From the NCBI GenBank assembly GCA_040388985.1, contig JAZKAU010000003.1:110896-174895 (forward strand): 64,000 nt of DNA, given 5' to 3'. The notes beneath the pieces are model-generated. The model was not told the DNA's origin, made no database searches, and was given only the letters and a program-made list of their open reading frames with translations. How positions within the stretch are numbered: the stretch's first letter is position 1; each line of letters starts with the position of its first letter. Positions 3,145 to 59,632 of the stretch are shown here, in pieces. The translations under genes were made by a program, and so were the position numbers. The stretch is from Patescibacteria group bacterium (GTDB lineage Bacteria > Patescibacteriota > Minisyncoccia > Phycocordibacterales > Phycocordibacteraceae).

Positions 3145-3213
3145 GGTAGAGAAGCAGTATAACATTTGAGACGTTAGGTTTCGTGAAGACTTACGAATAT
3201 GACCGAACAAAGG

Positions 3214-3250
3214 CAAAACAGCAGCGCGCCGAAGGCGCGCTGCTGTTTTG
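3214..3250 (-). terminator. Rho-independent terminator downstream of rplY (perfect stem CAAAACAGCAGCGCGCC-GAA-GGCGCGCTGCTGTTTTG)
   Basis: 17-bp perfect inverted repeat with a GAA loop. On the minus strand it is followed by TTTTGCCTTTGTTCGG. It lies between the rplY stop (3271) and the next gene start (3144). Confidence 0.7.
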
Positions 3251-3270
3251 CCTACACTGATCCTTCGAAA

Positions 3271-5071: not shown

Positions 5072-6067
5072 ATGCGACCTCTAGATTTCCTCGCCATCGG
5101 CGACATCGTTACCGAGCCCTTTATCCGCCTTACTGATGCGACGGTGGCACAGGCTGCGGACGGCACCCAGATGCTCTCCATGCGTTTCGGCGACAAGATA
5201 CCGTACGAATCGAGCACGGATATGCCGGCGGTCGGGAATGCATCGAATGCCGCCGTCGCAGTAGCGCGCCTCGGTCTCTCTTCGGCGCTTCGCGCGTATG
5301 TGGGCGACGACGTGCAAGGCACGCAGTGCCTTGCACGTCTGGTCGAAGAAAAAGTCGACACCGAGTACATGGTCACGGAGCCGGGCTCGAAGACCAATCA
5401 CCACTACGTGCTCTGGTACGGCAATGACCGGACCATCCTCGTGAAGCATGAAGCTTTTAACTACGACGTACCGACCATCGCGAATCCTCCGAAATGGGTC
5501 TATCTCTCTTCGCTTGCGGCCAACACTCTCGCCTATCACCACGCCATCGCCGAGATGCTCTCGTACCATCCGGATACGAAGCTCGCCTTCCAGCCCGGCA
5601 CTTTCCAGATGTCGCTCGGCGTCGAAGCGCTGAGGCCCATATATGAGCGCACGGATTTCTTCGTCGTGAATGTCGAGGAGGCCGAACGCATCTTGGGACT
5701 TCCTGAAGGACAGGACATCTCTCTGCTGCTCGAAAGCGTACACGCGCTCGGGCCAAAGGTCGTCGCCATCACTGATGGCACGAAGGGCGCGTACGCGTAT
5801 GACGGTACGCGCAAGATGCGCGTACCTATGTATCCGGACATACGAGGGCCCTATGAGCGTACCGGGGCCGGCGACGCATTTGCCTCCACGACCGTCGCCG
5901 CGCTCGCGCTCGGGAAACCGCTCGAAGAAGCGCTTCTATGGGGCCCGATAAATTCCATGTCGGTCGTTCAGGACGTCGGTGCGCAGCGCGGGCTCCTTAC
6001 CCTCGATACCCTCCTCGACTATCTCGTTAAGGCGCCTCCCGAATACGCGGTGACCGACCTGTCATGA
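5072..6067 (+). CDS. PfkB-family carbohydrate/nucleoside kinase (ribokinase-like)
   Basis: N-terminal DFLAIGDIVTEPFIRL and C-terminal TGAGDAF (the PfkB signature 2 anion hole). 331 aa. Confidence 0.8.
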   Translation: MRPLDFLAIGDIVTEPFIRLTDATVAQAADGTQMLSMRFGDKIPYESSTDMPAVGNASNAAVAVARLGLSSALRAYVGDDVQGTQCLARLVEEKVDTEYMVTEPGSKTNHHYVLWYGNDRTILVKHEAFNYDVPTIANPPKWVYLSSLAANTLAYHHAIAEMLSYHPDTKLAFQPGTFQMSLGVEALRPIYERTDFFVVNVEEAERILGLPEGQDISLLLESVHALGPKVVAITDGTKGAYAYDGTRKMRVPMYPDIRGPYERTGAGDAFASTTVAALALGKPLEEALLWGPINSMSVVQDVGAQRGLLTLDTLLDYLVKAPPEYAVTDLS

Positions 6068-6094: not shown

Positions 6095-6130
6095 CGGAAC
6101 ATCGTACGTCCTAGGACGTACGATGTTCCG
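6095..6130. repeat. 36-nt perfect palindrome CGGAACATCGTACGTCCTAGGACGTACGATGTTCCG, 28 nt downstream of the pfkB stop
   Basis: Read directly; every position pairs. It is followed by GGGAGGCCTTTCTATT. Likely a transcription terminator or protein-binding site. Confidence 0.6.
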
Positions 6131-9693: not shown

Positions 9694-10416
9694 CTACGCG
9701 TACATGCCATAGCGCACCGTGAGATCGGTGAATTCCTTGAAGGCCTCCGGCATGTTCGGCGCGCGCCAGAGCGCGGATCCCACGATAAGGCGCGAGACGC
9801 CCGCGGAGAGGAGGTCCGGCGCAGTTGAGAGCGAGACGCCGCCGTCTACCTGTATGGGCATATCCGGATACGTGCGCCTCCAGGCCGCGATCTTCGGAAG
9901 CACTCTACGGTCGAACGGTTCTCCCTGCTTCCCTATCGAAGAGATGCCCATAAATTGCACGTAATTGATATGGTCGAGATACGGCTCGATGAGGGAGATG
10001 TCGGTCCCGATATGGATAGCGAGTCCGAAGGACAACAGGCCCGCGAAATCCTTGTCGTGACCGTACGTAGTCTTAAAGTCGCGAATAAGTCTCGGAAGAT
10101 TGTGTGCAGTTTCCGCATGCACGGTTATGCGGCTCGCGCCTGCGCGTATCCAGCGCGCGATCTCGATTTCCGGACGTTCGACCATGAGATCCATCTCGAG
10201 GCATAGCCTGCCGAGATATGAGAAGGCGTCATCCTCAAGCTCCGGTTTCTCGTGCGCCGTTGCCGGATGTTCCGAGTAGGGCCATGACGCAGGTCGCACA
10301 TAGCGGCCGTCGACGATATCTATCTGCACATCAGTACAGAGTCCCTGCAACTGGAGCAGCTTCTCGTCGAGATCGGCGCGGGATGTCGGGAGTATGGCGG
10401 GGATGATGACGCTCAT
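9694..10416 (-). CDS. rpe: Ribulose-phosphate 3-epimerase
   Basis: From ATG 10416: MSVIIPAILPTSRADLDEKLLQL..., HLDIMDGxF-type TIM barrel, MGISSIGKQGEPFDRRVLPKI..QVDGGVS. The tracked ORF start at 10602 adds a non-protein-like extension. Confidence 0.8.
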   Translation of the reverse strand: MSVIIPAILPTSRADLDEKLLQLQGLCTDVQIDIVDGRYVRPASWPYSEHPATAHEKPELEDDAFSYLGRLCLEMDLMVERPEIEIARWIRAGASRITVHAETAHNLPRLIRDFKTTYGHDKDFAGLLSFGLAIHIGTDISLIEPYLDHINYVQFMGISSIGKQGEPFDRRVLPKIAAWRRTYPDMPIQVDGGVSLSTAPDLLSAGVSRLIVGSALWRAPNMPEAFKEFTDLTVRYGMYA

Positions 10417-10487
10417 GTCACAAAGTATAGCGCAGCGAAGGGACGCATCACGTTCCTGCGCTGTGCTATCGCGCGCGTATAGATAGT

Positions 10488-10970
10488 CTAAAATTTTCCG
10501 AGCCTGCGCGCGTGGCGCTCGTCTCCCGTGAACGGAGTCGTGAGGAAGGTACGCACGGCCTCGTCCGCCTGCGGCGGCGATACGAATCGCGAACCGATGC
10601 ACAGTATGTTCGCATCATTATGACGCCTGGCGAGTCGGACGATGTCATAACCATTCTCGGAGTGCCCGCCTTCGCGGTCGAGTGCCTCGATTGCCGAGAG
10701 CGGACCGTAGAAGACGGCAGCGCGGATTCCGGGAACGCGGTTCGCGCACATCGCCTCACCCTGTCCGCTGCCTGCGCATACGATGCCGAGCGAGCCGGCG
10801 TCCGCGAGTACCTTTTGAGTGAGTGGCTGCACGAAATCCGGATAGTCGTCATCCGGGTCAAGCGTGAACGCTCCGCAGTCTTCTATGTCGTTACCGAGAA
10901 GCGTCAATTGCTCGATAAGCGCATTCTTAAGTCCGAATCCGGCGTGATCGCAGGCAAGATATATCTTCAT
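10488..10970 (-). CDS. rpiB: Ribose-5-phosphate isomerase B (RpiB/LacAB family)
   Basis: MKIYLACDHAGFGLKNALIEQL...GIVCAGSGQGEAMCANRVPGIRAA is a strong RpiB match. 160 aa. Confidence 0.85.
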   Translation of the reverse strand: MKIYLACDHAGFGLKNALIEQLTLLGNDIEDCGAFTLDPDDDYPDFVQPLTQKVLADAGSLGIVCAGSGQGEAMCANRVPGIRAAVFYGPLSAIEALDREGGHSENGYDIVRLARRHNDANILCIGSRFVSPPQADEAVRTFLTTPFTGDERHARRLGKF

Positions 10971-11012
10971 ACTTATATATAGTACTAGCGAGCGTGAGAG
11001 GCGTATGAAGCG

Positions 11013-12026
11013 CTATGCGTTGCCGGCCTTTATCGCATGTTCGACGAGCGTATGGGTGTACCCTGCTTCGTTGTCATACCAGGCGAGGACCTTAACGAGA
11101 TTGCCATCGACCACGCGCGTCATGCCGAGGTCAGCGATGGAGGCGTATCGCTCGCCGATGATGTCGCTTGAGACCAGATCTTCGTCGGAGGCGCTGAATA
11201 TTCCCTTCCAGCGATCCTGTACCGCCGCGTCCCGCAAAATCTGATTCACTTCTTCAACGGTCGTCGGACGCTTTGCAACGAATGTAATGTCGGCAATGGA
11301 GCCTGCCGGCACCGGGACGCGCAGGCTGATGCCGTCGAACTTGCCGGCAAGCGACGTGTAAGCCTTCGTAACCGCGATCGCGGCACCCGTGGAGGTCGGA
11401 ACGATATTCTGGGCCGCTGCGCGACCCTCCTTCATATCTTTCTTCGACGGCCCATCGACGATGGACTGCGAGGCGGTATAGGCATGCGTGGTCGAAAGTA
11501 TGGCCTTCTCGATGCCTATCGTCTCGTCGAGTATGGCGATGACCGGACTTGCGGAGTTAGTGGTGCAGGACGCGTTGCTCGTTATCGGACATGTCGCGAA
11601 TTTCGATTCGTCGAGACCCATGAGGATGGTCGCACCGAGCGGACTCTCCTCCTTTACGGGCGCGGTAATGACGACACGGCGAGCGCCTGCCGTAATGTGC
11701 GCATTGGCTTTGTCGTAATCGGTGAAAAATCCGGTCGATTCGATGACCACATCCACCTGCAGATCCTTCCAGGGCAGGAGCGCCGGATCTTTCTCGGATA
11801 AGAACGCTACTTCTTTCCCATTCACGAGGAGCTTGCCGTCCTTAGCTTCCACCGGAAACGGCGCGCGCCTATATACGGTGTCGTATTTGAGAAGGTAGGC
11901 GAGATTCTCCAGAGAGCCGAGATCGTTTACGGCGACGAGCTCTATCTCGGGACGATTATACGTCTCTCGTACGAAGGCGCGGCCGATGCGGCCGAATCCG
12001 TTAATGGCGACGCGAATGGGTTTCAT
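11013..12026 (-). CDS. gap: Glyceraldehyde-3-phosphate dehydrogenase, type I
   Basis: INGFGRIGR Rossmann motif and catalytic SNASCTTN. 337 aa. Confidence 0.9.
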   Translation of the reverse strand: MKPIRVAINGFGRIGRAFVRETYNRPEIELVAVNDLGSLENLAYLLKYDTVYRRAPFPVEAKDGKLLVNGKEVAFLSEKDPALLPWKDLQVDVVIESTGFFTDYDKANAHITAGARRVVITAPVKEESPLGATILMGLDESKFATCPITSNASCTTNSASPVIAILDETIGIEKAILSTTHAYTASQSIVDGPSKKDMKEGRAAAQNIVPTSTGAAIAVTKAYTSLAGKFDGISLRVPVPAGSIADITFVAKRPTTVEEVNQILRDAAVQDRWKGIFSASDEDLVSSDIIGERYASIADLGMTRVVDGNLVKVLAWYDNEAGYTHTLVEHAIKAGNA

Positions 12027-12099
12027 ACAGGAAATCAGAAAATCTAGGAATTAATACCTTGAAATTCTACCACGCCCTATCTACCCATAAAGAAGCTCC

Positions 12100-12126
12100 A
12101 TATATGGACTTACGTTGTCCATATAT
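12100..12126. repeat. REP-like palindrome copy 1: ATATATGGAC-TTACGTT-GTCCATATAT
   Basis: 10-bp perfect arms, 17 bp upstream of the transposase GTG start. It is the reverse complement of copy 3. Confidence 0.75.
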
Positions 12127-12142
12127 AAGATATTAGAAATTA

Positions 12143-12844
12143 GTGAGATTTATTTTAAGGCAGGTTTGCTATATTCTTCACGTGACTCTTTTTCATGCAC
12201 TTAACCGCGGAGTTGATAAGCGAGAATTATTTCTCGACGAAGAGGATTATATACGTTTTATACATGACTTATATGTATTTAATGATGTCGAGGAGATATC
12301 ACCGAATCATCGTTTTCATACTTCATATATGGACAACGTAAGTCCATATATACGGAGTCCGCTTGTGACGATTCATGGATGGTGCTTGATGGATAATCAT
12401 TATCATTTGCTTCTATCGGAACTTGTAGAAGGAGGTCTACGCTTGTTCCTTCGACGGCTGAATGTCGGTTATGCAAAATATTTTAATGAGAAATATAAGC
12501 GTATAGGAGTGCTCTTCCAGGGAAGAACGAAGAAAATCCCGGTTAACGATGAGGCACACTTCCTGTATATCCTGCATTACATACATTTAAACCCATTAGA
12601 CTTATTGCCAGGAGCACGTGACTGGCGTACCAGGGACGGTGCGCAGATCCAAGATATGCAAGAAGCACTGGCATATCTTACGACCTACCGGTGGAGCAGT
12701 TATCTGGATTATGTAGGAACGAAGAATTTTCCTTCGCTTATTGATCCTTCGTTCTTTAATGATGCACTCGATGGCTACGCAGAATCACTCCAAGAATTTC
12801 TTTGGGATCGAGCAATCTCTCAACTTCCGTATGTGTTGGAGTAG
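12143..12844 (+). CDS. HUH Y1 transposase, IS200/IS605-family, REP-associated (RAYT-like)
   Basis: N-terminal HVTLFHALNRG, HUH motif DNHYHLLL, and C-terminal YRWSSYLDY, which resembles the RAYT WSS-Y catalytic region. GTG start (first in-frame start after a stop). The gene is AT-rich (about 40% GC) against a roughly 60% GC background. Confidence 0.65.
   Translation: MRFILRQVCYILHVTLFHALNRGVDKRELFLDEEDYIRFIHDLYVFNDVEEISPNHRFHTSYMDNVSPYIRSPLVTIHGWCLMDNHYHLLLSELVEGGLRLFLRRLNVGYAKYFNEKYKRIGVLFQGRTKKIPVNDEAHFLYILHYIHLNPLDLLPGARDWRTRDGAQIQDMQEALAYLTTYRWSSYLDYVGTKNFPSLIDPSFFNDALDGYAESLQEFLWDRAISQLPYVLE
12325..12351. repeat. REP-like palindrome copy 2 (ATATATGGAC-AACGTAA-GTCCATATAT) inside the transposase ORF, in frame (encodes ..SYMDNVSPYI..)
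   Basis: Read directly; identical to copy 3's core. Confidence 0.75.
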
Positions 12845-12856
12845 AGGTCTCAGGAG

Positions 12857-12879
12857 ATATGGACAACGTAAGTCCATAT
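12857..12879. repeat. REP-like palindrome copy 3: ATATGGAC-AACGTAA-GTCCATAT
   Basis: Starts 13 bp after the transposase stop and ends 9 bp before the giant gene's stop codon (12888); inverted relative to copy 1. Confidence 0.75.
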
Positions 12880-12887
12880 TTTAAGAT

Positions 12888-37664: not shown

Positions 37665-38277
37665 GTCGGATATCCGAATTACCTAAATAATAGCTTGCTA
37701 TTTCGTAATGCTCTCTATCGCGCGTGGGGATAAGATTCTGAAAAATTCTATGCCATGAACGTTCGCAAAAAATCTTCACTCGTTGAAGGTTCATGCAGAA
37801 AATGAAAGGAGTTCGATCGCGCATAGTTGCCGGAATTTCGGTTTGCGTGCAACTTTGATCTTCTTGAACGGACAACTTGAGAGAACCTTTGCTGCTTTAT
37901 TCCGTCTGATCAGGACTACAGACCTTCCTAACGAGCGAGAAACCTACCTATGGCAGAAGTTCCGGGGGTGATTCGAGCAACGCGTACTGACGACCGCTAC
38001 CGAAAAAGTAATACCATAGTCAAGAATATAGCTTATAGATACTAGCGATATCGGAAATACAACGGCTGAGGCAATACATATCTTGGGTTCGTGGGTGAAA
38101 TGATGGCGACAAGAAAGGTTACGGAGGAGAAGCCGGAAAGATTCGAATACAAGTAAGTTGTGATTATGTTTGTTTGCGCTGACTCTTTTTTGGACCCGAT
38201 AGTGATGCTCTGATTCCTGCTATAAATGCTGAAGATCATTAGATATTCCTTTGAGCGAGAACAAACGCTAAAGATTA

Positions 38278-38309
38278 TTAAAATAGAGACGAATTCGTCT
38301 CTATTTTAA
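38278..38309. terminator. 32-bp perfect palindrome TTAAAATAGAGACGAATTCGTCTCTATTTTAA (bidirectional terminator-like)
   Basis: Read directly. Located 48 bp downstream of the 38357 stop of the HTH-TM gene and flanked by A/T runs. Confidence 0.55.
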
Positions 38310-38319
38310 TAATTATTGT

Positions 38320-38343
38320 TTCTTGTCTATACGAGACAAGAAA
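38320..38343. terminator. Second hairpin TTCTTGTCT-ATACG-AGACAAGAA immediately after the gene stop
   Basis: 7-9 bp stem flanked by TTT/AAAA, in tandem with the 38278 palindrome. Confidence 0.45.
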
Positions 38344-38356
38344 AGCCTATTATAAG

Positions 38357-39262
38357 CTATCTAGAAAAGACTCTGTTGCCGACGAGAAAATTAATTATCG
38401 CGTTGTTACCCGCCAGCGTTTTCACGTATACGTCCGCATATCCGGATCCTATGACAGCAATAACGATTGCTATCAGTGCAATCGCAAGGAACAGAGCGAT
38501 GACTGGAGCATTGGACCGTCCTGAGAGACGCTCCCTCTTGAATTTAGGTTTGCGACCTTCTTTGCGCTTTTGTTGCACGGGAACTATCTTTTCAGGGGCG
38601 CTTGGCGAGCCTACGCGCCGAATAGGGATAATATCGGCTGCCTCCTCTTCGACAATCTCCTCATCAGGCTCGAGTTGCGTATCTATGCGGTGTAGCGGTA
38701 CGGCGACCTCTTCAGCGTACGAGACTTCTCTACTGTCTTCGTACCCGGTCTCTGGCGCCCCCGCTTCTTCTTCGATGTACTGAGCTACGTCTTGATTCCG
38801 ATTCTCCACAATCGGCTCTATAACGGCCGGAGTTGGTGCCGTCTGCTTCTGATCGAACCATTCCTTCCACGCTGTCTGCATGTCAGTAAGCGTGTCTTCA
38901 GGGGTTTCCGGGATATCTTCTTCCTCTATTACAGGCGTTTTAAGCTCTGGGACGAGAGCAACTGGCTCGGAGGTGTATACCGGCGGCTCCCACGTTGAAA
39001 GCGTTTCCGGAGTCGCCGTATCGCTCTGTGAGCCTACCGGAGCTGATGTTTCGCGTGCCTGCTCGACTTGCCTTACTTCTTCCGCGCCAAAACGATGTGC
39101 ACGGATGGAAGGCTCGTATACATACCAGCCACGACCCACCATCTTCGCATCGATATGACCTTCGCGGCAAAGCTGGCCGACATAATCTTTGGCATACCCA
39201 GTAATCTCTGCCGCCCGCTTAGACGAGATATACGTCTTGTCCCCTATAGTTATTTCATCCAT
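38357..39262 (-). CDS. HTH_17-like N-terminal domain protein with acidic disordered linker and C-terminal TM anchor (paralog of the giant protein's head)
   Basis: From ATG 39262: MDEITIGDKTYISSKRAAEITGYAKDYVGQLCREGHIDAKMVGRGWYV aligns with the giant ORF's N-terminus (S.K.A..I.GY..DY...LCR......VGR.W.V). This is followed by an E/P/T-rich linker and a C-terminal helix APVIALFLAIALIAIVIAVIGSGY. The tracked ORF extends to 39316. Confidence 0.6.
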   Translation of the reverse strand: MDEITIGDKTYISSKRAAEITGYAKDYVGQLCREGHIDAKMVGRGWYVYEPSIRAHRFGAEEVRQVEQARETSAPVGSQSDTATPETLSTWEPPVYTSEPVALVPELKTPVIEEEDIPETPEDTLTDMQTAWKEWFDQKQTAPTPAVIEPIVENRNQDVAQYIEEEAGAPETGYEDSREVSYAEEVAVPLHRIDTQLEPDEEIVEEEAADIIPIRRVGSPSAPEKIVPVQQKRKEGRKPKFKRERLSGRSNAPVIALFLAIALIAIVIAVIGSGYADVYVKTLAGNNAIINFLVGNRVFSR

Positions 39263-39323
39263 GCAGTAAGTATATACGTTTCTCGTCTCGTTTGGAGTAG
39301 GTTGTTCACACAACAAGAAGCGT

Positions 39324-39358
39324 AGTCATATATGGACTTCGTAAGTCCATATATGACT
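39324..39358. repeat. REP-like palindrome copy 4: AGTCATATATGGACTT-CGT-AAGTCCATATATGACT (16-bp perfect arms), preceded by GTAG
   Basis: Shares the ATATATGGAC/GTCCATATAT core with copies 1-3. Located 62 bp upstream of the 39262 start. Confidence 0.75.
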
Positions 39359-39430
39359 AAACCGCTCTCATTTCTGAGGGCGGTTTCGTGCCTGCTTTCC
39401 GATCTACGTATGATTGACCTGTCTCCTAGC

Positions 39431-40858: not shown

Positions 40859-40908
40859 ATAGTACCTAGTAAACAGGACAGGGCGTGACAGCGCAACCGT
40901 GCATAGAG

Positions 40909-40945
40909 AAATCGGACCGGGCGCCAGAGGCGCCCGGTCCGATTT
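40909..40945 (-). terminator. Rho-independent terminator after obg (AAATCGGACCGGGCGCC-AGAG-GCGCCCGGTCCGATTT)
   Basis: 16-17-bp perfect stem between the obg stop (40963) and the gatB start (40858). Confidence 0.6.
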
Positions 40946-40962
40946 CTCACCTGTATTTCGAA

Positions 40963-48944: not shown

Positions 48945-49216
48945 GTAGGCCGTAGTATACGACTTTGTTTACTTATGAGCAAAGCGAATTAGTAAACAAG
49001 AAGTGCTCTTGTAGTGCCTGAATAAATAGTAGGCAGAAAGCAGCAGGCAGAAGCAGTTTTAAGACAAAAATGACACAGACTCTAAAGGCCTCTGAAAAAC
49101 CCGAGATGCAAGGCGCCAGCAAGTGAAAGTTCGAGCCAGACTCGCGCGTGCGGTGAGGACTTGAGCGCAGCTGGTAACGCAGCAGGTCGGGAAACCAGAG
49201 GGCTCACACAAAAGCA

Positions 49217-49245
49217 AAAGCCGCTCCCCGAAGGGAGCGGCTTTT
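49217..49245 (-). terminator. Rho-independent terminator (AAAAGCCGCTCCC-CGAA-GGGAGCGGCTTTT) after the lysine-rich protein gene
   Basis: Perfect stem with a tetraloop. On the minus strand it is followed by TTTTGCTTTTGTGTG. Confidence 0.7.
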
Positions 49246-49257
49246 GCGGCCGAAAAA

Positions 49258-59560: not shown

Positions 59561-59632
59561 AATCCGCCTTCAAACAGCCGGCCACCTATAGGTGGCCGGC
59601 TGTTTGAAGATAGTCGCTCGCGAGTAACGTAA

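Follow-up and report, generated by a model that had tools for sequence, protein, structure and literature searches.

A system of the REP/RAYT type, that is, repetitive extragenic palindromes (REPs) together with a REP-associated tyrosine transposase (RAYT), was found in a genome of the candidate phyla radiation (CPR). It lies in a 64,000-nucleotide stretch of DNA (the window; positions 110,896 to 174,895 of the forward strand of contig JAZKAU010000003.1, assembly GCA_040388985.1) from a Patescibacteria group bacterium. The gene, located at positions 12182-12844 of the plus strand, codes for a 220-amino acid (aa) protein of the Y1/HUH family. It is probable that this protein is a resident, single-copy, RAYT-like class 2 Y1/HUH nuclease with a subclass 2.1 signature, present throughout the Patescibacteria and accompanied by dispersed cognate hairpins. 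The system combines a CPR-wide clade, a subclass 2.1-like protein, perfect cognate hairpins and a hairpin copy fixed in the coding sequence. The hairpin occupies three fixed positions relative to the gene: the promoter/5′ region, the part of the coding sequence that specifies a disordered loop before the HUH strand, and the stop codon.

The open reading frame (ORF) was called mechanically at 12143-12844, and the start was placed at the GTG codon at 12182, on the basis of the NCBI product (P0001; 220 aa, 100% identity) and of the alignment of homologs. Residues are numbered from this GTG. The protein carries the HUH motif N-H-Y-H (12395-12406), the tyrosine motif Y-I-H-L-N-P (from 12578) and a C-terminal Y-R-W-S-S-Y box. 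In 92 sequences H73, H75, Y133 and the R-W-S-S residues are invariant, and conservation of Y133, L136, N137 and P138 gives the Y---NP signature of class 2. The HUH motif and the C-terminal W-S-S-Y box had both been recognized in the original prediction, and both are present; the N-terminal H-V-T..RG box that it also proposed has to be abandoned, since the conserved box is H-A-L-N-R-G and the H-V-T lies upstream of the likely start. The N-H-Y-H, FQ and Y-I-H-L-N-P motifs, the WSS/SS tail and a length of ∼220-238 aa match class 2, subclass 2.1, of TnpA-Y1 when compared with Table 1 of PMC6006769. Gene callers sometimes pick an ATG inside the upstream hairpin as the start (P0002, P0024 and P0026; loci L101-L110), which adds N-terminal extensions such as MDIVSPY, a translated hairpin.

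The Y1_Tnp profile of Pfam (PF01797), against which the original prediction proposed to check the ORF, gave 20 bits with the window protein, just below the gathering cut-off of 23, and matched 89 of 92 relatives at E < 0.01; many relatives also have a precomputed PF01797 match. The NCBIfam family REP_Tyr_transpos (NF047646) matched all 24 aligned relatives, weakly (best E 6.5e-11), and no family of Pfam or NCBIfam other than these two matched the window protein. More than 5,800 homologs were detected. Leaving aside its own product (100%), the window protein has 53-66% identity to the best 120; the named sources are Patescibacteria, Paceibacterota, Minisyncoccia or Kaiserbacteria, and the label is mostly "transposase".

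An AlphaFold2 model computed from the 92-sequence alignment had a pLDDT of 80.1 and a pTM of 0.78; a version from 24 sequences (pLDDT 39) was discarded as unusable. With this model, the top match of a Foldseek search of the PDB was 4ER8, the Escherichia coli REP-associated transposase in complex with a REP hairpin (E 9e-6), followed by IS608/ISDra2 TnpA structures at ∼1e-3 (top matches 4ER8, 2A6O, 2XO6 and 2VJV). The identity to 4ER8 is only ∼12%, and a profile search of PDB sequences returned nothing meaningful. The window ORF encodes an intact Y1/HUH-family protein. The peptide encoded by the internal hairpin falls in the sole long low-confidence segment of the model (residues 38-55, pLDDT below 50), a loop located between helix A and the HUH strand.

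The palindrome ATATGGAC-N7-GTCCATAT was searched in the window by a pattern scan that allowed up to two mismatches. Four exact copies were found, and none is expected by chance (100 shuffles). The upstream hairpin, ATATATGGAC-TTACGTT-GTCCATATAT (12100-12126; core 12102-12124), has a 10-bp stem and a 7-nucleotide (nt) loop, and its DNA fold has an energy of -7.0 kcal/mol (z -4.2). The internal hairpin, ATATATGGAC-AACGTAA-GTCCATATAT (12325-12351; core 12327-12349), lies within the coding sequence, where it is translated as Y-M-D-N-V-S-P-Y-I, and its 27 nt are an exact reverse complement of those of the upstream copy. The downstream hairpin, ATATGGAC-AACGTAA-GTCCATAT (12857-12879), is found 13 nt past the stop codon of the RAYT-like gene and 9 nt short of the stop of a convergent giant ORF. 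The fourth copy, at a distance of 26 kb, is solitary: TAGTCATATATGGACTT-CGT-AAGTCCATATATGACTA (39323-39359; core 39330-39352, loop TTCGTAA) has a 17-bp stem, a 3-nt loop and canonical T-A closing pairs, and is located between the terminator that follows gatB and the start of the next minus-strand gene. Its fold is the strongest (-15.4 kcal/mol, z -9.8); as single-stranded DNA all four copies fold with -5.8 to -15.4 kcal/mol and z-scores of -4.1 to -9.8. A derived AA/TT loop is common to the three gene copies and absent from the solitary one. Within the window GTAG is found at the solitary copy only, where the 5′ G completes it, and the three gene copies have TATG instead.

Bracketing of the ORF by exact copies of the palindrome is as originally predicted. 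The copy at 12857 does carry the reverse-complement loop expected of an inverted copy, but the match spans 23 nt and not 27. The solitary copy placed near 39324, with 16-bp arms and a 5′ GTAG, is indeed there with its GTAG, and runs from 39323 to 39359 with a stem of 17 bp. The copy inside the ORF, which had gone undescribed, is in our account the most unusual feature of the locus.

A putative -10-like box, TATATT (12170-12175, plus strand), was read from the sequence 6 nt before the GTG start. A scan with promoter and terminator consensus sequences made no promoter call at this box. In the alignment of upstream regions, a TATACT-like box directly follows the upstream hairpin in most homolog loci.

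The arrangement is conserved in a set of 85 loci (4 from GTDB genomes, 80 from metagenomes and the window), in which perfect stems of at least 7 bp were counted. Nearly every locus has three hairpins. The upstream one, present in 62 of the 83 loci with enough sequence on that side, ends ∼10-25 nt before the ATG; the internal one is centred at codons 47-60 and is perfect in 58 of 85 loci; and the downstream one, present in 69 of 81 loci counted correspondingly, is located from -5 to +13 nt relative to the stop codon in most cases. The internal stem is imperfect in ∼22 of the 85 loci, mostly as the same hairpin with 1-4 mismatches, and is lost in ∼4. Stems reach 12-18 bp at their longest, with a 3-nt loop. 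The cores vary between loci (ATGTAGGAC, ATGTTCGAC, ATGATGGAG, ATATCGGGA, ATGTCGGGAC, ATGAACGAC and others) and match within a locus: the arms have an identity of 0.94 inside a locus, compared with 0.59 across loci. The consensus of the family is ATG-N3-GAC-NT-CGT-AN-GTC-N3-CAT, and in one large class (ATGTAGGAC, ATGTGGGAC) GTAG or GTGG is found inside the stem. Two loci have more elaborate forms: in L069 an inverted hairpin doublet with an 18-bp outer stem is located within coding sequence (5126-5164), and in L051 identical 55-nt double-hairpin palindromes are present on either side of the gene.

The stems of the internal hairpin stay paired while their sequence changes. Covariation was analyzed on 72 distinct internal hairpins and 12 stem pairs. 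Of the cells, 91.2% were paired, a percentage inflated by the centring of the hairpin windows through maximisation of pairing, against 30-42% when the partners were slid. Changes on both sides were observed for 10 of the 12 stem pairs, and double-change cells numbered 199, compared with 64 in shuffles; the observed value was reached in none of 500 shuffles.

Across the loci, two codon phases are used to read the internal hairpin, with unrelated peptides as the result (for example, ATG-TTC-GAC-TTA-CGA..., M-F-D-L-R-S, and AAT-GTA-GGA-CTT-ACG..., N-V-G-L-T-K), and the hairpin is found in both loop orientations (D-F-V-S versus D-L-R-S). This argues that the constraint is on the DNA and not on the peptide. 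Complementary loop triplets (CGT/ACG, CGG/CCG and GGT/ACC) are seen at all three positions. Among the copies of one locus, that of the window included, the asymmetric bases next to the loop are shared as exact reverse complements, which indicates that these copies are related by inversion of the whole unit.

It could be argued that the hairpins are RNA elements, stem-loops acting in mRNA stability, termination or translation, to which the Y1 protein has a secondary link. Their positions at the 5′ end, inside the coding sequence and right after the stop would suit mRNA elements, and elsewhere REPs stabilise mRNA 3′ ends (discussed in PMC3733652). However, G·U pairs make up 17 of the 93 non-Watson-Crick cells of the 72 internal hairpins, roughly their chance share and no enrichment, which argues against a constraint at the RNA level. 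Furthermore, every hairpin position accepts either orientation, hairpin copies are found within unrelated genes in three frames, and the upstream hairpin mostly lies 5′ of the -10-like box and hence may not be transcribed. Rfam at gathering thresholds gave no match across the whole window. We therefore regard the RNA explanation as highly improbable.

The genomic context of the gene speaks for a resident. In the window the order is gap (11013-12026, minus strand), the cassette, and the 3′ end of a giant ORF (8,258 aa). At least 16 distinct loci, with a GAPDH 57-84% identical to that of the window, have a divergently oriented gap upstream of the cassette. Beyond gap, the window shares rpiB and rpe with one related locus family (the P0111 loci); the window has the order rpe - rpiB - gap (9694-12026) and then the divergent cassette. 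The position next to gap is common to diverged Patescibacteria (neighbourhood loci L001, L026, L029, L033, L035, L050, L077, L091 and L101-L110). Two proteins that occur as identical copies on many contigs, P0111 and P0055, have one genomic context apiece (24 contigs). On the other side of the cassette, the minus-strand ORF of 8,258 aa (12888-37664) abounds in T/S/G/A repeats and stops 9 nt short of the downstream hairpin; its positional counterpart in one related locus carries a Bact_surface_Ig-like domain.

As originally noted, the ORF is AT-rich: the GC content is 0.32-0.49 over 12040-12885 and 0.55-0.68 around it. The gene is below its flanks in every one of 47 loci, by ∼10 points on average (mean 0.43 versus 0.52, r = 0.70; for example L022, L048, L071 and window 12182-12844), so that AT-richness is a property of the family and no sign of recent arrival. 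Recent horizontal arrival as the cause of the low GC is thus ruled out by the family-wide deficit. One possibility is that the AT-rich context favours extrusion of the hairpins or reflects frequent single-strandedness.

These data bear on a second explanation, namely that the locus is an autonomous insertion sequence (IS) of the IS200 type, a recently transposed, AT-rich 0.8-kb cassette whose left and right ends are the hairpins. The compact unit of hairpin, gene and hairpin, its low GC within GC-rich flanks, the Y1/HUH fold, and the occurrence of the family in several genomic contexts, with two paralogs on one contig (L035, L071), would all fit such an element. But the protein has Y---NP instead of Y---Q and 220 aa instead of ∼150, the ends are identical perfect palindromes and not distinct imperfect left and right hairpins, and no tnpB neighbours the gene. 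The adjacency to gap is kept across the whole range of GAPDH identities, the identical proteins have one context each, low GC is a family trait, and no relatives turned up among the IMG/VR viral contigs scanned. An insertion sequence is the least probable of the explanations considered here; the gene behaves as a single-copy resident. From the RAYT/IS200-like label of the original prediction the RAYT half stands, with the 4ER8 fold, Y---NP and the bracketing hairpins, and the IS200 half is unsupported, given the missing Y---Q, the single contexts of the two relatives' proteins and the conserved gap adjacency.

The hairpin family is dispersed in genomes of related Patescibacteria. The exact palindrome of the window was found in 20 stretches among GTDB representative genomes, a set to which the window's own genome does not belong. 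All 20 are from CPR genomes, with six contigs of one metagenome-assembled genome and three of another. With the locus-specific cores, ∼15 solitary sites were found in 282 kb of flanks, 5 of them within 9.4 kb of a 1.03-Mb contig, and with a generic definition of the family 45 hairpins were found outside cassettes in 484 kb, compared with ∼1 expected. Besides many solitary copies there are head-to-head doublets with a 21-nt spacing, and some copies have locus-specific extended outer stems. Copies are located between genes and also, in frame, inside housekeeping genes, namely those for glycyl-tRNA synthetase (GlyRS; in the anticodon-binding domain), TsaD, DinB, HolB and an HI0933-like protein.

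The GlyRS copy (locus L004, 6834-6856, glycine-tRNA ligase) was compared with the orthologs in L122, L124, L125, L126 and L127. The segment is equally long in orthologs of 89, 86 and 77% identity, which rules out an in-frame insertion at this site. Close orthologs carry a different palindromic stem at the same spot (ATAACGAG...CTCGTTAT), and more distant ones no palindrome there. The two closest genes differ at 8 of 18 nt in the patch and at 2 of 51 in its flanks. Such clustering of the differences in an 18-nt patch indicates a single multi-nucleotide replacement.

How might such copies arise? We propose that the enzyme would bind the hairpin in single-stranded or extruded DNA and would then cut and rejoin beside it. 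By this reaction a hairpin unit could be renewed, or another put in its place in either orientation, so that the copies of a locus would be kept alike, reading frames would stay intact and new copies would be seeded, as in REP/REPIN-RAYT systems. Through the three gene-proximal copies the enzyme would probably also act on its own gene or repress it. Replacement in place fits both the same-length GlyRS patch and the AA/TT loop common to the gene copies of the window, and it would explain the frame-preserving copies inside essential genes. The more specific proposal, that the internal hairpin serves as a functional cis site by which the enzyme acts on its own gene or throttles it, and that hairpins spread by replacement in place and not by insertion, is put forward as a tentative and rather doubtful one.

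The internal copy could instead be functionless, an ancient in-frame REP insertion in a tolerant surface loop, kept perfect by template switching and by short-tract conversion with the two neighbouring copies as donors. The loop is disordered in the AlphaFold2 model and absent from a proteobacterial relative, the internal stem has mismatches or is lost in the loci counted above, and in-frame REPs in RAYT genes of subclass 2.4 have been reported as tolerated. Against this, the hairpin has been retained at one site across a family of more than 5,800 detected members, with 50-65% identity among those examined, and coding DNA has kept stems as long as 17-18 bp, in two reading phases, where pure drift would be expected to erode them. 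We consider a functionless internal copy a realistic alternative that falls somewhat short of an even chance. It touches the role of the internal copy and leaves the identity of the system as it is.

Among the closest known systems are the REPtrons. Papers on REPtrons reportedly include those of Nunvar (2010), Bertels and Rainey (2011) and Ton-Hoang/Messing (2012). Like the REPtron of E. coli RayT (4ER8), the system described here has a Y1/HUH fold, Y---NP and a single-copy resident gene bracketed by cognate hairpins, which in related genomes are also dispersed singly and as inverted doublets. It differs in several respects. The hairpins of the CPR family are perfectly palindromic and have a 3-nt loop; any GT[AG]G that they carry is inside the stem instead of forming a single-stranded 5′ foot; a copy inside the coding sequence is obligatory; the copy number appears modest; the host is a CPR bacterium; and the protein is remote from 4ER8 (∼12% identity) and scores well under the NCBIfam cut-off. 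Descriptions in the literature cover REPtrons, REP doublets (REPINs), intragenic REPs and TIRYTs (PMC2817692, PMC3116915, PMC3733652, PMC5581495).

With subclass 2.1 and the TIRYTs the protein shares NH[YF]H, FQ, Y[IV]HLNP, the SS tail and a length of ∼220-238 aa. TIRYTs, or TIRtrons, have flanking terminal inverted repeats (TIRs) with GGGGWSAS and a C-terminal helix-turn-helix (HTH)-like domain (Di Nocera 2013, PMC3733652). Here the flanks are self-complementary hairpins of a dispersed family without GGGGWSAS, and no C-terminal HTH was detected with Pfam. A 30%-identical relative, also annotated as a transposase, is encoded by the Rhodospirillum rubrum plasmid NC_007641.1 (L121). This gene is flanked by perfect 19-nt inverted repeats, TTAAAAGGGGTCAGACCCC, at 504-522 and 1270-1288, which contain GGGGTCAG; each has a small palindrome and the TIRYT motif GGGGWSAS. 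They are placed as the CPR hairpins are at the two ends of the gene, one ahead of the start codon and one past the stop. Relative to the R. rubrum protein, the window protein has extra insertions of 23 and 19 aa, the first of which holds the hairpin-encoded loop.

In subclass 2.4, from Cyanobacteria and Bacteroidetes, in-frame REPs inside the tnpA-REP gene are reported as tolerated (PMC6006769). There too a cognate REP is located in a peripheral loop of the RAYT gene without breaking the frame, and the "double-foot" REPs of this subclass, with GT[AG]G and its complement on the arms, resemble the ATGTAGGAC...GTCCTACAT class found here. However, its motifs NH[IFV]H, WQ and YIxNNP differ from those of the window protein, and in the CPR family the copy is at one fixed site before the HUH motif, family-wide, in two phases and both orientations. 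The TnpA proteins of IS200/IS605 (IS608, ISDra2) share the fold and the logic of a hairpin in single-stranded DNA, but they have Y---Q, ∼150 aa and distinct imperfect hairpins and belong to multicopy insertion sequences, none of which applies here. Rickettsia palindromic elements (RPEs) and intragenic REPs (PMC3733652) are likewise in-frame repeats in housekeeping genes, among them genes for tRNA synthetases and DNA repair; here, at GlyRS, the one site studied closely, the hairpin replaced a segment of equal length and added no residues.

A recognition site embedded in the initiator's own coding sequence is also known from HUH initiators, namely gene A of phiX174 and repC of pT181. Those sites are the replication origins of small replicons, whereas the gene described here is chromosomal and has further hairpins at both of its ends and elsewhere.

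Besides the inflated pairing percentage, several points weigh against the interpretation of the locus as a RAYT-like enzyme with its cognate hairpins. Enzyme binding, the sites of cleavage and the choice of strand are all predictions. The window protein scores 29.8 bits with NF047646, far under the equivalog cut-off of 80, and subclass 2.1 has been reported to lack REP-like sequences (Quentin 2018, PMC6006769). What covariation shows is a hairpin formed or copied as one unit, and function is not implied by it: template switching in quasi-palindromes can yield perfect stems and double changes without selection. The dispersed REP family that had been predicted is borne out in related Patescibacteria genomes, and the window itself holds one solitary copy in 64 kb, so that high-copy dispersal in this organism is unproven. 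Finally, among 20 near-identical population variants of two loci neither the upstream nor the downstream hairpin showed any flip or swap polymorphism, from which it can be deduced that hairpin turnover is slow.

Other palindromes are present in the window. At 6095-6130, 28 nt past the stop of the ORF at 5072-6067, CGGAACATCGTACGTCCTAGGACGTACGATGTTCCG is a palindrome with a 16-bp stem made of two inverted GGACGTACGATGTTCC units. Its core resembles another hairpin class of the RAYT-like family (GGACGTACGACGTCC), and it may be a relic doublet of that class. GC-rich perfect palindromes with stems of 15-20 bp, whose sequence is unrelated to the RAYT-like hairpin family, are located at 3211-3253, 40906-40948, 49214-49247 and 59568-59609. 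They look like bidirectional intrinsic terminators, and those at 3211 and 49214 are bordered by A and T runs. An AT-rich perfect palindrome with an 18-bp stem, ATTATTAAAATAGAGACGAATTCGTCTCTATTTTAATAAT (38274-38313), is adjoined by a second palindrome at 38319-38343, and both are found just downstream of the minus-strand gene at 38357-39316.

Most of the known REP/RAYT systems come from Proteobacteria, Cyanobacteria and Bacteroidetes, and the way in which a RAYT produces or mobilises REPs is still an unsolved question. The ultra-small, streamlined genomes of the CPR carry a system of this type, and a search for REP/RAYT together with CPR/Patescibacteria gave no relevant report in the literature library covered, in line with the original prediction that REPs are unreported in this group. 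A protein with the signature of subclass 2.1, a group described as REP-less, is here accompanied by cognate hairpins. One hairpin is kept inside the enzyme's own gene family-wide, the three local copies evolve together, and at one site a hairpin took the place of a segment of the same length inside an essential gene. A family annotated plainly as "transposase" yet behaves like a resident gene. These findings suggest a templated replace-in-place mechanism, tractable with short oligonucleotides and a small protein. If this is true, the CPR would offer a compact system, with an enzyme of 220 aa, a perfect hairpin of 23-35 nt and genomes of ∼1 Mb.

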